From contig NZ_CABQHJ010000003.1 in NCBI RefSeq assembly GCF_902463975.1, positions 38,854-102,853 on the forward strand: a DNA stretch of 64,000 nt, given 5' to 3'. Shown piece after piece: positions 39,585-44,767 of the stretch. Below the pieces are notes generated by a model, which was not told the DNA's origin, did no database searches, and was given only the letters and a program-made list of their open reading frames with translations. Position numbers and translations under genes: made by a program. Source of the stretch: an uncultured Phascolarctobacterium sp. Its GTDB lineage: Bacteria; Bacillota; Negativicutes; Acidaminococcales; Acidaminococcaceae. Every line of letters begins with the position of its first letter. Position 1 is the first letter of the stretch.

Positions 39585-39614
39585 CAGCAGATTCAGTGTC
39601 TGCTGTGTTTTTTT
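39585..39614 (+). terminator. terminator after ybaK
   Basis: CAGCAGA-ttcagtg-TCTGCTG followed by TGTTTTTTT. Confidence 0.65.
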
Positions 39615-39667
39615 ACGCATAAAAAGACCTCCCGTAAGCAGATTTTTTCAACTGATTACAGGAGGTC
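39614..39667 (-). terminator. hairpin repeat element, copy 1 (GACCTCC...GGAGGTC + U-tract); member of a 3-copy family
   Basis: Related to copies at 41505-41559 and 44088-44142. Confidence 0.5.
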
Positions 39668-39698
39668 ATTTTTCATATGCTTGTAAATTTTTCACAAG

Positions 39699-39785
39699 CT
39701 ATTTTTTCATTTTGCAAAATATAATTATGCTAAAGAAGCTACCTGGCAAAATACCTGTTTTAACTTCCCTTCCGCACGCAATCAT
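39699..39785 (-). pseudogene. 5' gene fragment: N-terminal 28 codons of a paralog of the 42242-42649 gene, then stop
   Basis: MIACGREVKTGILPGSFFSIIIFCKMKK* versus MIACGRNVRTGIFVGSFFSITIFCIVVW... at 42649. Lies in a ~100-bp repeat that is ~90% identical (39715-39815 vs 42585-42685). Confidence 0.5.
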
Positions 39786-39894
39786 TCTATCAACTCCAAT
39801 TTTTAATCTTCTATACTACTTTCACTAAATACGTTTTTATAAAATAGTTTACTTCTGATAACTTCGAACAATACATCTGTATTATCCTATTTAT

Positions 39895-40383
39895 CTACTC
39901 GTTGTGACAAATTTTAGACTTACATATTCTGCCAAGATACTCAGACATTTCTTTCTCTCCCATTTCATGAATTCCATTTTGATTATACAGCTGTAAATTA
40001 ATGCAATAGATATACATTGTATTGAAATCATAATCTTCATCAATGAACATTTCTAAAATCTCATGTTCCAATTTCCAACCATACAGCATCAAAAAATAAG
40101 ATATTTTTCTATATGCGTCTATATCTTTAGAGTACTTTTTTATATATAACATATAAATGCTCCAAGCAAATTTTTCATCCTCAAAATTAAGTAGCCAATT
40201 TTTTGAGATTAGAATTGCCAAATCGTCAATTGATACTTCTGTAGCAACATTTACTTTCATATGTAATTCATCCTCTAAAGGCGCTAATAATTCATATATC
40301 GGATGATCATGCTTATAATCCATAGGTAAGCTAAGCAGATAATCATAAATTGAAACTATTGTCTTTAATTTCACCTCATACAT
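39895..40383 (-). CDS. hypothetical acidic protein (162 aa)
   Basis: ORF with a plausible start. AT-rich codon usage typical of this island. No family recognised. Confidence 0.45.
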   Translation of the reverse strand: MYEVKLKTIVSIYDYLLSLPMDYKHDHPIYELLAPLEDELHMKVNVATEVSIDDLAILISKNWLLNFEDEKFAWSIYMLYIKKYSKDIDAYRKISYFLMLYGWKLEHEILEMFIDEDYDFNTMYIYCINLQLYNQNGIHEMGEKEMSEYLGRICKSKICHNE

Positions 40384-40518
40384 CTCCCATATAGTTTATG
40401 TTAATTTAAAATTCAACAAAGTCACGCATAGTTTTATTAGTGGCTTTTCATAGACACATTCTCAGCAGATAGCTTTCTGCTTATTACTGCTACTATTGTA
40501 TAAAAACCTCATTAAAAT

Positions 40519-42233: not shown

Positions 42234-42241
42234 GCTTTCTC

Positions 42242-42649
42242 CTATCTTCTGATTACAGATACTTCCAAACTATTATCTTTGTTACTTATTATGCAGTGGT
42301 TGCTTCCGTCTTTATAGCTAATAGTATTGCTATTTTGAGTCGACAAGCTCTCAGGAAATTCTTTATGATAATAATCAATTATCTCATCATTATTCATTCC
42401 TTCAATCCTTAAATTTTTCTTTAGCACTACAGTACGCTTTCCCAAGACTTCTTTTTTTATGTAAAAATCTATCCATTCACTATTTTCAGGATCCCGTATG
42501 CACAAAAATGTCTTATATATACTTAAATCAGCGTTATTTGTAATATTGCATCCGAAAATAATTTTCCAAACTACTATACAAAATATAGTTATGCTAAAAA
42601 AGCTACCTACAAAAATACCTGTTCTAACGTTCCTTCCGCAAGCAATCAT
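42242..42649 (-). CDS. hypothetical protein with N-terminal TM anchor (135 aa)
   Basis: MIACGRNVRTGIFVGSFFSITIFCIVVWKII.... Its 5' end lies in repeat R3 (42585-42685). Confidence 0.5.
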   Translation of the reverse strand: MIACGRNVRTGIFVGSFFSITIFCIVVWKIIFGCNITNNADLSIYKTFLCIRDPENSEWIDFYIKKEVLGKRTVVLKKNLRIEGMNNDEIIDYYHKEFPESLSTQNSNTISYKDGSNHCIISNKDNSLEVSVIRR

Positions 42650-43065
42650 CCTATCAACTCCAAATTTTAATCTTGTATACTATTTTTACAAAAAAGTCAC
42701 GCTTTGATCCTTTTCAAGGTTTACTCAAACAAAATATAAGTAATCCAACAGTAAATATGAGCATCCCTTTATACACATCATTTCTTTTTTCCGTACTCTA
42801 AAGTTTGAGCTTTTTTTAAACCAATACATACAATACTATGAGTAGTACAACAATATAAGAATGCCATAATTTTATATTGCTTTTCAACAGAACTCTTATA
42901 TCTTCATTAAAGATACTTGCTGCAACAATCGGCATGATGATAAAAGAATTGAGCAGCTTACTTTTTCTTGTAAAGATAGTTTTCTTGTTCTGTTTACACT
43001 TAAAACCGCTTTAAAAAACATACCAATAATTACAAAAGCCAAAATCTTCATTTTATCGCAATCCT

Positions 43066-43872
43066 TCATTTGATTTTCTTCAGCTCGTTGTTAAGCTTTT
43101 GTACTTGCTCACTCAGCCACTCTTCTTTGTTCAAATAGTCCTTCTCTTGATTTACAAGCTGCTGATAACTTCTAACTACTTCGTTATCAACACAGTGCTC
43201 CTCTAGTTGCGCTTTCAGTACTCCCATATAAAACTGTAAAGCTGTGTCCGGGAAGAGTAATTCTGATTGATATTCATTCTTCATACTGATTAAAATATTC
43301 GTTTTTGTTTTAATTAGCTTATTTTTGGTACTATAATATACATCACCATACAATCCATTAATATCTTCCACTTTATCAATAACTTCCATGCATTCTTCAG
43401 GAAGATTATACAATCCTAATTCTCTTAATTTATTTCTATAGAATCTTAATGCTCCAGCGGGGAAAAAAGTAGAACCTTTCTGTGCTAAGCCCAAATCCGA
43501 CTCTTTTGTTACCACATTAATTACTCTTTTTTCTTCGCCATCCCCCCAATGATAAATAATGTATTTATTATTATCATTTAAATCTCTTTCATATTGATCT
43601 GGCCAAATAAAATTCTCCAACTTCAGTTTGCCAATTTTTTGCCAATTTTCATCCTCAAATATCATTATAGTAGATATTATCTTTTTATTCTTTATTTCGT
43701 TAATATTACATCCATATATAGTTGGATGTATAGCATAAAGTCCAAACATTTTAAATCCTATGGGTATATGCTTCGCCAAATAAATTAAATACCCCTTATT
43801 CTGATACTTGTCTATAACAACTTCTAAAACATCGCCAATATATAATCTGCTCATTTTAAAGTCACCACTCAA
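43066..43872 (-). CDS. hypothetical protein, paralog X2
   Basis: See X1. Its N-terminal ~200 aa are ~45% identical to X1, and the last 66 aa are 100% identical. Confidence 0.6.
   Translation of the reverse strand: MSGDFKMSRLYIGDVLEVVIDKYQNKGYLIYLAKHIPIGFKMFGLYAIHPTIYGCNINEIKNKKIISTIMIFEDENWQKIGKLKLENFIWPDQYERDLNDNNKYIIYHWGDGEEKRVINVVTKESDLGLAQKGSTFFPAGALRFYRNKLRELGLYNLPEECMEVIDKVEDINGLYGDVYYSTKNKLIKTKTNILISMKNEYQSELLFPDTALQFYMGVLKAQLEEHCVDNEVVRSYQQLVNQEKDYLNKEEWLSEQVQKLNNELKKIK
43072..43272. repeat. R2 copy b (3' end of X2)
   Basis: See R2 copy a. Confidence 0.85.
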
Positions 43873-43995
43873 TTAGCCTTTCTCCAAAACATGGTAAAAT
43901 TTTAAGCCAAGTTTTTAACATTAACGTATCTTATACCTCCATGCAGACCTTTTCACCACCACCAAAATTTCACCAACCTACGTTATTCATACACT

Positions 43996-44301
43996 AAGCT
44001 CCTGCTTTCCGGTACCGCAAAATCTGCACTTTTACTTTATTAAATTCGCTTCTGCAAACTTTTTTCCTGCTATAATTCCAATTACATTTTAAATCTAAAA
44101 AGACCTCCTGCAAGCAGCTTTTCTTCTGCATACAGGAGGTTCATTTATACACACACTATAAAAATTTTTCGTAGGCCTTGTGCCCAACCCTCTACTGCTT
44201 CATTTTGCAAATCATCTGCGTCATAGTCCCCATCGGGCAAAAGGTACACCAGGTTCTCGGCTTGAACAGCGCCATTACCACCAAGCCAAGCAGCATAGAG
44301 G
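43996..44301. repeat. R1 copy b (overlaps 3' end of the membrane-protein gene and its terminator)
   Basis: See R1 copy a. Confidence 0.9.
44088..44142 (-). terminator. hairpin repeat element, copy 3 = terminator of the membrane-protein/ferredoxin transcript
   Basis: Same hairpin as copy 2, 50 nt downstream of the stop at 44192. Confidence 0.6.
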
Positions 44302-44767
44302 TGAGCATTACGCTGTAAAAGCCAAAGGCATACTGCGCAACCCACGCCGGAGAGCTGCCTGCGGTATAGGCCCACGCCCAGGGAAGCTTAAACGTCCAAA
44401 GCAGCGTCACAACCTCACGCAGGGACTGCGCCTGCGTTGCTACAAGATATGTCTGCCACAGCATGTTACCGAACATCGCCATAAAGAAGGCCAAAAAGCC
44501 GAAGCGGAAGTATTTGGCAACTAAAAGCTCCGGAGTAACACGGTTACGCGACCACTTCCACTCGCCGCCCAGCTTTGCCAAAAGCAAACCGCGTCCGCAG
44601 TAACGGTTGCAGAACAGCTTGTTGCCGCCAAACAGTGCCAACAAAGCAGGCACCATAAAATCAATCATTCCCAGCCAGGCAAAAAGGATATTGAAAAAGC
44701 CCAGGACAAAATAAATTATCGGCCATAGCCAAAGATAATCATACCAATGCTGCACTTTCTTAGCCAT
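44192..44767 (-). CDS. integral membrane protein with CxxxC / CxxCP motifs (COG0348 NapH/polyferredoxin-like N-terminal module)
   Basis: Start taken at MAKKVQHWYDYLWLWPIIYF, with AGGGTGG upstream. Motifs LFCNRYCGRG and WCTFCPMG, and 4-5 TM helices. Confidence 0.5.
   Translation of the reverse strand: MAKKVQHWYDYLWLWPIIYFVLGFFNILFAWLGMIDFMVPALLALFGGNKLFCNRYCGRGLLLAKLGGEWKWSRNRVTPELLVAKYFRFGFLAFFMAMFGNMLWQTYLVATQAQSLREVVTLLWTFKLPWAWAYTAGSSPAWVAQYAFGFYSVMLTSMLLGLVVMALFKPRTWCTFCPMGTMTQMICKMKQ

Follow-up and report, generated by a model that had tools for sequence, protein, structure and literature searches.

A strain-variable islet of probable orphan immunity genes of contact-dependent growth inhibition in Phascolarctobacterium

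Introduction

Systems of contact-dependent growth inhibition (CDI) can be accompanied by orphan cdiA-CT/cdiI modules, which stand in tandem and keep their immunity genes without a functional toxin, and for which the immunity repertoire has been proposed as the benefit (Poole et al. 2011, PMC3150448). Among polymorphic immunity proteins, Imm26 has been listed as a partner of Tox-URI1 toxins of the URI/GIY-YIG fold, including those on type V secretion system (T5SS)/filamentous-haemagglutinin carriers, and its occurrence in poly-immunity loci has been described (Zhang et al. 2012, PMC3482391). Here, we analyzed 64,000 nucleotides (nt) of an uncultured Phascolarctobacterium sp. (contig NZ_CABQHJ010000003.1, positions 38,854 to 102,853 of the forward strand; hereafter the window, whose own numbering is used throughout) and found that positions 39611-44285, between the genes fer and ybaK, probably represent a strain-variable islet of orphan CDI (type V secretion) immunity genes that was built by recombination without a dedicated recombinase. 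The islet carries two paralogous genes, X1 and X2, and smaller genes for proteins of 135, 154 and 162 amino acids (aa). Numbers beginning with L denote comparison loci and those beginning with P matched proteins.

As with the orphan cdiA-CT/cdiI modules (PMC3150448), near-identical modules are common to strains at different positions, and among the comparison loci, L005 and L024-L026 retain CdiA stubs, which is the classical form. In contrast to those modules, the window array is not downstream of cdiBAI, has housekeeping flanks and no VENN-type cdiA fragment, and retains only ∼80 nt of a probable toxin remnant; moreover, its repeated anchor is the 3′ end of the housekeeping gene fer instead of the cdiA pre-toxin region. 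The Imm26/Tox-URI1 pair (PMC3482391) resembles the locus in the homologous N-terminal beta domain of X and in the toxin found beside X homologs, a GIY-YIG domain on a filamentous-haemagglutinin carrier. However, X1 and X2 miss the Pfam model, and X carries a helical C-terminal extension of ∼110 residues that is homogenised within each locus. The acquired interbacterial defence (AID) and recombinase-associated AID (rAID) arrays of gut Bacteroidales (Ross et al., bioRxiv 10.1101/471110; Azhieh et al. 2025, PMC12247911) are likewise orphan immunity arrays of gut commensals that occur in a subset of strains, with orphan copies that have diverged from their toxin-linked cognates and are better conserved than the flanks. 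Those arrays counter type VI secretion system (T6SS) effectors and come with a recombinase or mobile element, whereas the window holds putative T5SS/CDI immunities in a Negativicute host, no recombinase or mobility gene, and junctions of homologous and illegitimate recombination. Unlike an integron cassette array, the islet contains neither an IntI integrase gene nor attC-type inverted repeats. Orphan poly-immunity islets are already known, and the present one is from a previously unstudied lineage.

Results

X homologs directly follow CdiA toxin domains

Homologs of both X genes were found in the position of CdiI, immediately 3′ of the cdiA C-terminal toxin region. The X2-type gene of L008 begins 11 nt past a contig-truncated CdiA-like open reading frame (ORF) with a weak DUF637 match, a TKNNE junction and a C-terminal toxin domain, and a 1272-aa orphan CdiA lies downstream of X (Fil_haemagg_2 E = 1.6e-65; CDI_toxin_EC869_like E = 6.9e-15). 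An X1-type gene begins 16 nt past the toxin C-terminus in L029 and L030, and this C-terminus is 87% identical to that of L008. The L029 toxin carries the canonical YIGRT motif and scores 26.6 bits against GIY-YIG (gathering threshold 22.6); the L008 variant gives a weak match to the same domain (E = 0.04). Differences between the two toxins are concentrated at residues 121-150 (63% identity, whereas most of the remainder is at 87-100%). Each of the two toxin variants has its own X type: the N-terminal part of the window X2 is 79% identical to that of the toxin-linked X in L008, and that of the window X1 is 76% identical to its toxin-linked counterpart in L029, with cross-type identities of 46-52%. 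In L005, two modules, each made up of a 94-aa CdiA repeat stub and an X gene, adjoin smpB.

The earlier note on this DNA, made from the sequence alone, had recognised no toxin domain in the block, and for the whole window this was confirmed, as tblastn (E ≤ 1) detected no CdiA-like or Fil_haemagg sequence there. Because the homologs follow GIY-YIG CdiA-CT toxins and the window lacks CdiA and any recognisable toxin domain, X1 and X2 are best read as orphan immunity genes of this toxin family. A trace of the toxin may nevertheless persist, since homology to L008 runs ∼60-80 nt upstream of the X2 start into the 3′ end of the L008 toxin gene, colinear and with the frame broken (56/80 positions identical; score 30 versus a shuffle mean of 20.6, standard deviation 2.7, z ∼3.5). 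This stretch of ∼80 nt is probably the decayed 3′ end of a toxin gene. Upstream of X1, no toxin remnant was found.

In the CdiA proteins of Phascolarctobacterium, a (S/T)GTKNN(E/Y) junction seemingly replaces VENN (L008 126-5764; L025 3205-5703). The C-terminal domains behind it vary and include GIY-YIG, EC869-like, and glycine-rich or hydrophobic types that may act on membranes. The orphan CdiA of L026 (2109-3365) has a different junction, STEKYNH. A literature search retrieved no paper on CDI in Phascolarctobacterium.

X is a small, divergent Imm26-like family

X1 and X2 share 60% identity overall; their last 67 residues are identical and their N-terminal parts are 53% different. Direct family scans of X1, X2 and the 162-, 154- and 135-aa proteins with Pfam, NCBIfam and PADLOC gave sub-threshold matches that we judged spurious (Pox_TAA1 at 24.8 bits with a cutoff of 27, DUF3417, and HamA over 40 residues). 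The earlier note could not name a family for X, but profile comparison does: hhalign aligned the X-family profile to Imm26-positive proteins with 98.9% probability (E = 1.7e-17, 229 columns). Distant matches of the X profile were limited to the N-terminal ∼150 residues, and five of the seven passed the Imm26 gathering score (P0033, P0034, P0035, P0037 and P0038). An AlphaFold2 (AF2) model of X (pLDDT 79) has an N-terminal all-beta domain at about residues 14-121 and a helical C-terminal half; among solved structures, neither half had an informative relative. On these grounds, X is a divergent, putative Imm26-like immunity protein. The family is small, with 22 clusters at 90% identity among 5.8 billion; an exhaustive search with the profile yielded 18 representatives among 1.84 billion at E ≤ 1e-3. 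In named genomes, it is almost entirely confined to metagenome-assembled genomes (MAGs) of Phascolarctobacterium, together with one short contig labelled Bacilli.

The two parts of X follow different groupings. N-terminal parts group by type across loci, with 97-98% identity among copies from the fer-ybaK locus, 59-85% to copies elsewhere and 42-51% between types. C-terminal parts group by locus, at 96-100% identity within a locus versus 55-60% between the fer-ybaK locus and L005. One could speculate, although we regard it as rather doubtful, that X is modular, with an N-terminal specificity cassette that can be swapped and that is bounded by two dedicated arms for recombination, namely the direct repeats D1 (upstream of it) and D2 (encoding the C-terminal part), both described below. 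Immunity would then be re-tooled by homologous exchange without a recombinase, the copied housekeeping terminator would act as a landing pad, and the C-terminal helical scaffold would be generic (serving, for example, oligomerisation or localisation) and independent of toxin type.

Three X-family matches (P0013, P0017 and P0022) are chimeric with housekeeping domains (PBP5_C, PF17785, Mur ligase), which suggests that elsewhere, too, X cassettes may adjoin or be fused to the ends of chromosomal genes, as at fer. The most divergent member, P0019 (45% identity; L028 6925-8810), is another detached orphan: it lies by itself in a different chromosomal slot, flanked by a Fic-domain gene and purC, and no CdiA is near.

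The islet consists of two units and displaced copies of the fer 3′ end

The islet is an AT-rich block of 4.6 kb, with a GC content of 0.27-0.34 over ∼39600-44000 compared to ∼0.50 on either side, and the ORF listing of the window places all its candidate genes on the minus strand. Read 5′ to 3′ on that strand, the order is fer, D1 copy A, X2, a 57-aa ORF, the 135- and 154-aa genes, D1 copy B, X1, the 162-aa gene, a 24-codon fragment of a 135-aa-like gene fused to a sequence that ends in '...CKMKK' and a stop codon, a third terminator and the convergent ybaK (Table 1). Three direct repeats run through this order, namely D1 (300 nt, 99% identity, spacing 2583), D2 (203 nt, 98% identity, spacing 2544) and D3 (115 nt, 87% identity; 39715-39829 and 42579-42693); the core coordinates of D1 are 41403-41702 and 43986-44285. 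They correspond to R1, R2 and R3 of the earlier note, which had also placed the low-GC block, the two X paralogs and the 135-, 154- and 162-aa ORFs correctly.

The chromosomal anchor of the islet is fer, whose 3′ end is the sequence repeated within it and whose orthologs border the empty site in L012-L021. What had been described as a terminator-hairpin element belonging to each unit is in reality the last ∼95 nt and the terminator of this upstream gene. The hairpin part of D1 occurs a third time, at 39611-39718 and with ∼82% identity, and the hairpins are strong (-24 kcal/mol; fold z = -5.2 and -7.4). Copy A of D1 is an allele unlike the native fer end. In copy B, the junction J1 lies on the 5′ side of the fer fragment and the hairpin of its terminator, T_B, at ∼41520-41557. 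The third terminator, T_C, has been displaced ∼4.6 kb from the fer gene; of the two or possibly three units suggested previously, two stand and the third is the displaced native terminator. On the other side, ybaK has its own terminator-like site (39582-39608). The ∼100 nt of D1 that follow each terminator (43986-44087 and 41403-41504) matched neither native intergenic sequence nor the examined cdi loci.

Table 1. Positions of the islet features and flanking genes within the window
Feature	Coordinates	Strand	Basis or remark
fer, ferredoxin-type (Fer4_5) membrane protein gene, intact	44192..44905	-	Pfam PF12801, 23.7 bits, cutoff 22
D1 copy A: last ∼95 nt of fer, terminator hairpin (∼44103-44140) and ∼100 nt of other sequence	43986..44285	-	Repeat search, alignment, folding
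Probable toxin-gene 3′-end remnant (GIY-YIG CdiA-CT), decayed, frame broken	43855..43934	-	Directly upstream of X2; moderate support
X2, putative orphan Imm26-like immunity gene, type 2	43066..43854	-	262 aa from ATG at 43854; ORF listing starts at TTG 43872
D2 copy A: 3′ 203 nt of X2, encoding the shared C-terminal helical segment	43070..43272	-	
Pseudogene (frameshifted) of 97-aa protein with two transmembrane (TM) segments	42781..43069	-	57-aa ORF of the earlier note, 43069..42896
135-aa protein gene, first of mobile 135/154 pair; candidate immunity protein	42242..42649	-	
154-aa TM-anchored protein gene, second of 135/154 pair; candidate immunity protein	41769..42233	-	
D1 copy B	41403..41718	-	Displaced fer 3′-end fragment (∼41611-41718), terminator T_B and ∼100 nt as in copy A
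X1, putative orphan Imm26-like immunity gene, type 1	40519..41322	-	267 aa
D2 copy B: 3′ 203 nt of X1	40526..40728	-	
162-aa soluble protein gene	39895..40383	-	159 aa if GTG start
D3 copy B: sequence upstream of a 135-aa-like gene and its first 24 codons	39699..39829	-	Fused at J2 to last codons of native fer
T_C: resident fer 3′ end (∼20 nt) and native terminator (hairpin ∼39626-39667)	39611..39718	-	Empty-site alignment L013-L021; z = -7.4
ybaK, YbaK/EbsC-type tRNA-editing domain gene, right chromosomal flank	39069..39548	+	Pfam PF04073, E = 8.8e-25

The locus varies among strains

A comparison of strains for copy number and cassettes, as the earlier note had proposed, revealed empty, one-unit, swapped and truncated forms, showing that this is not an invariant single-copy locus. 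The site was empty in all 10 of the 10 long contigs that encode an identical YbaK, and ybaK there lies ∼150 nt from fer. L011 carries one unit (fer, X1-type, 57, 135, 154, fer fragment, ybaK), and L007 has two units with the X types in the reverse order compared to the window. L001-L004 show the window arrangement, but with 821 bp deleted (window 44193-43373), which leaves X2 truncated. Identity between strains is 97.5-99% for island segments and 92-97% for their flanks; this greater similarity of the island fits a recent spread by recombination.

The 821-bp deletion (junction ∼10150 in L001) also removes the fer stop codon, and fer reads into X2 sequence in another frame. For L001-L004, the gene caller accordingly gives a 151-aa chimeric ORF (P0020) and no fer gene.

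Two further sites in the window vary by strain. At 47808-49343 (minus strand), where the GC content dips locally, the gene for a 511-aa protein with SLFN/AlbA_2, HATPase_c_4 and winged-helix domains is flanked by DUF6125 and an FrhB-like gene; related strains have nothing at this slot, or else GmrSD, a HEPN_Swt1-SNF2 helicase or the same protein. Lying 3 kb from the islet, it is a second hot spot that is defence-like and varies by strain. The third, a variable hot spot of integration, is at 31970-34307, where a tRNA gene (34234-34307, minus strand) adjoins a RhuM+Fic protein gene (31970..32938) and where related strains have a tyrosine integrase, Bro-N proteins, RhuM or an insertion sequence (rve).

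Junction sequences suggest insertion, stacking and exchange

By alignment, T_C matches the native fer end and terminator of the empty sites. The terminators of D1 copies A and B (T_A and T_B) are of a different allele, which is most similar to the L012 lineage. Microhomology at the junctions is limited to 3-4 nt. J1, at ∼41703-41718, keeps ∼95-110 nt of fer, compared to the ∼20 nt at J2, where codon 24 of the 135-aa-like gene is joined to the last ∼20 nt of native fer at 'tttg'; the L001 deletion joint is at 'agt'. In L011, the displaced fer fragment passes straight into the native terminator. The left crossover point could not be located, because every comparison strain is 92-95% identical to the left flank throughout. 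Between 39500 and 44400, we found no recombinase ORF, the islet contains no inverted repeats, and a megablast search with the islet sequence matched no plasmid or phage.

The simplest history that we can offer has three steps, the order of which we infer. Each of two independent insertions would have paired a homologous crossover in or upstream of fer with illegitimate joining on the opposite side, at 3-4 nt of microhomology, and would have shifted the resident fer 3′ end and its terminator downstream. Unequal homologous recombination through the duplicated fer end would then have stacked two different single-unit alleles, giving rise to D1. Finally, the N-terminal specificity regions of X may have been exchanged or converted between slots via the D1 and D2 arms, a step suggested by the grouping of N-terminal parts by type and of C-terminal parts by locus. 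The structure thus fits the stacking of two different alleles with exchange between repeat arms rather than the simple tandem duplication assumed previously. A phase-variable locus, which had also been considered, finds no support, since there are no inverted repeats, simple-sequence tracts or recombinase, and the repeats are all direct with the genes on one strand.

Some accessory genes belong to modules seen near CdiA stubs

Among the small proteins of the islet, those of 135 and 154 aa each have one N-terminal hydrophobic segment, in the 135-aa protein with a possible lipobox (IFGC), and the 162-aa protein lacks such a segment. The 57-aa ORF is a frameshifted 97-aa gene, as tblastn with the L005 97-aa protein (p97) recovered three frame-shifted pieces of 87-92% identity. 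This two-TM gene is intact in L005 and L010, and the start of the pseudogene overlaps the X2 stop (ATGA). The families of the 135-, 154- and 162-aa proteins are tiny and without names, and BLAST among them and similar proteins of other loci revealed no relationship among those of the window. A fold assignment for the 154-aa protein was dropped because of a poor AF2 model (pLDDT 62) and unreliable best Foldseek matches (Flpp3 lipoprotein, E ∼6e-3).

The 135/154 pair moves as a unit and recurs across L022-L027, including the smpB-yjbR slot (L022, L023) and sites in L024-L026 where a CdiA repeat stub immediately precedes it. L026 further encodes a similarly built, TM-anchored protein that overlaps the end of a 418-aa orphan CdiA-CT. 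The pair and the decayed 97-aa gene probably encode, or encoded, immunity proteins that are located in the envelope and counter envelope-acting toxins, a suggestion that these contexts make less strongly than the toxin-adjacent homologs do for X. The 162-aa family comprises three clusters, occurs in this islet only and offers no informative context; its product is possibly another immunity protein.

Other Phascolarctobacterium strains have another immunity islet in the smpB/tmRNA-yjbR slot (L005 5600-11100; L022 6900-11300). In L005, it also has 83-aa and 97-aa genes besides the two modules of CdiA stub and X, and in L022 it carries HicAB together with 158-, 80-, 135-, 154- and 125-aa genes.

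Discussion

The homology of X, the gene positions, the variation among strains and the junction sequences are direct observations, and together they make an islet of orphan CDI immunity genes the likely explanation of the locus. The earlier note's suggestion of a polymorphic immunity/effector cassette array shaped by gene conversion was thus essentially right, with X being Imm26-like and its homologs occupying the CdiI position. X1 and X2 would represent two specificity types of one immunity family, built from an N-terminal Imm26-like beta domain and a C-terminal helical segment. The Imm26-like domain would bind and block the GIY-YIG (URI-fold) nuclease domain of CdiA delivered by neighbouring cells, and a cell with both X types and no toxin gene would be shielded from two toxin variants circulating among its relatives. 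The 135/154 pair, the decayed 97-aa gene and perhaps the 162-aa gene would be further modules from the same cdi-associated pool. Expression, toxin binding and a protective function are what we infer from sequence comparison.

A number of observations weigh against this explanation. Neither X1 nor X2 matched Pfam Imm26 (PF15428), even at E ≤ 1. The N-terminal parts of the orphans are 21-24% diverged from the toxin-linked copies, and protection against those exact toxins is consequently not guaranteed. The absence of a toxin gene applies to the 64-kb window, not to a possible cdiBA elsewhere in the host genome. Each X gene begins just past a strong terminator, and a promoter scan yielded 28 promoter-like sites versus 22.9 expected from shuffling, none of them convincing. 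No cognate toxins were found for the 135/154 pair or the 162-aa protein, and the CdiA stubs beside 135/154 are without toxin domains. The truncation of X2 in L001-L004 and the frameshift in the 97-aa gene indicate that the islet is partly decaying. Lastly, a single-unit X1-162 allele is deduced and was never seen whole, as L006 stops at the contig end.

Among other explanations, a small integrative element is the least improbable, though we still consider it unlikely. Here, each unit would be one insertion at an att site in the fer 3′ end, catalysed in trans by a site-specific recombinase, and the three fer copies would be attL, a hybrid att and attR. Integrative elements typically insert at the 3′ end of a gene and supply a replacement end, three direct copies of the fer 3′ end and terminator do bracket two units, and tyrosine integrases lie ∼5 kb away, beyond MscL, in the related L006, L012 and L015. 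The copies, however, stop at different points of fer (∼95-110 nt at J1, ∼20 nt at J2) and are joined to unrelated sequence at merely 3-4 nt of microhomology; the islet itself has no recombinase gene or inverted repeats and no plasmid or phage match, and X cassettes also occur without fer sequence, in the unrelated smpB-yjbR slot and in cdi loci. We give still less credence to a tandem duplication of lineage-specific genes, for example for envelope or stress proteins, that was homogenised by gene conversion and has no tie to toxin immunity. Such an origin would agree with the near-identical repeats of ∼2.5-kb period, the lack of a toxin gene in the window and the failure of curated families to match X1, X2 or the 135-, 154- and 162-aa proteins directly. 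It does not account for the profile-profile homology of X to Imm26-positive proteins, for X genes directly behind GIY-YIG CdiA-CT toxins at two independent loci, or for CdiA stubs adjoining both X and 135/154; in addition, the two units differ in their genes, and the X types occur apart in single-unit alleles.

That the islet serves anti-phage defence in a defence hot spot, with the X genes as effectors, appears very improbable. A variable slot with SLFN/AlbA_2-, GmrSD- or HEPN-helicase-type genes, depending on the strain, does lie 3 kb away, and PADLOC gave a weak match of X2 to HamA (E = 5.6e-4 over 40 residues), but this match is short, absent from X1 and without a HamB partner nearby, no other PADLOC match was obtained, and the toxin-adjacent homologs indicate interbacterial immunity. 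An assembly artefact, that is, a collapse or expansion of a single-copy locus, can practically be dismissed. X-bearing contigs are mostly short, as repeats cause in short-read assemblies (the longest contig for P0001, which has 411 member sequences, is 2 kb), yet L001-L003 and L007, which were assembled independently, have two-unit arrays with the same repeats, including both D1 copies, on contigs as long as 82 kb, and X1 and X2 with N-terminal parts 53% different are not collapsed copies.

If the islet does consist of orphan CDI immunity genes, a set of gene families without names gains a likely role in a commensal that is very common in the human gut and whose flanking YbaK sequence alone is indexed in 956 blocks of the assembly collection. 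The loci compared here indicate that Phascolarctobacterium strains use a CDI toxin-immunity repertoire, with a TKNN-type junction and toxins of GIY-YIG, EC869-like and probably membrane-acting types, and that the immunity genes of some strains come without the toxins. Acquired orphan immunity, so far described mainly for T6SS in Bacteroidales, would thereby extend to type V (CDI) toxins in a Negativicute. The locus also provides a well-resolved example of how an islet may form without a recombinase, via displaced copies of the 3′ end of a housekeeping gene, and its two immunity types, together with the two toxin variants, offer a ready pair of specificity classes for experiments.

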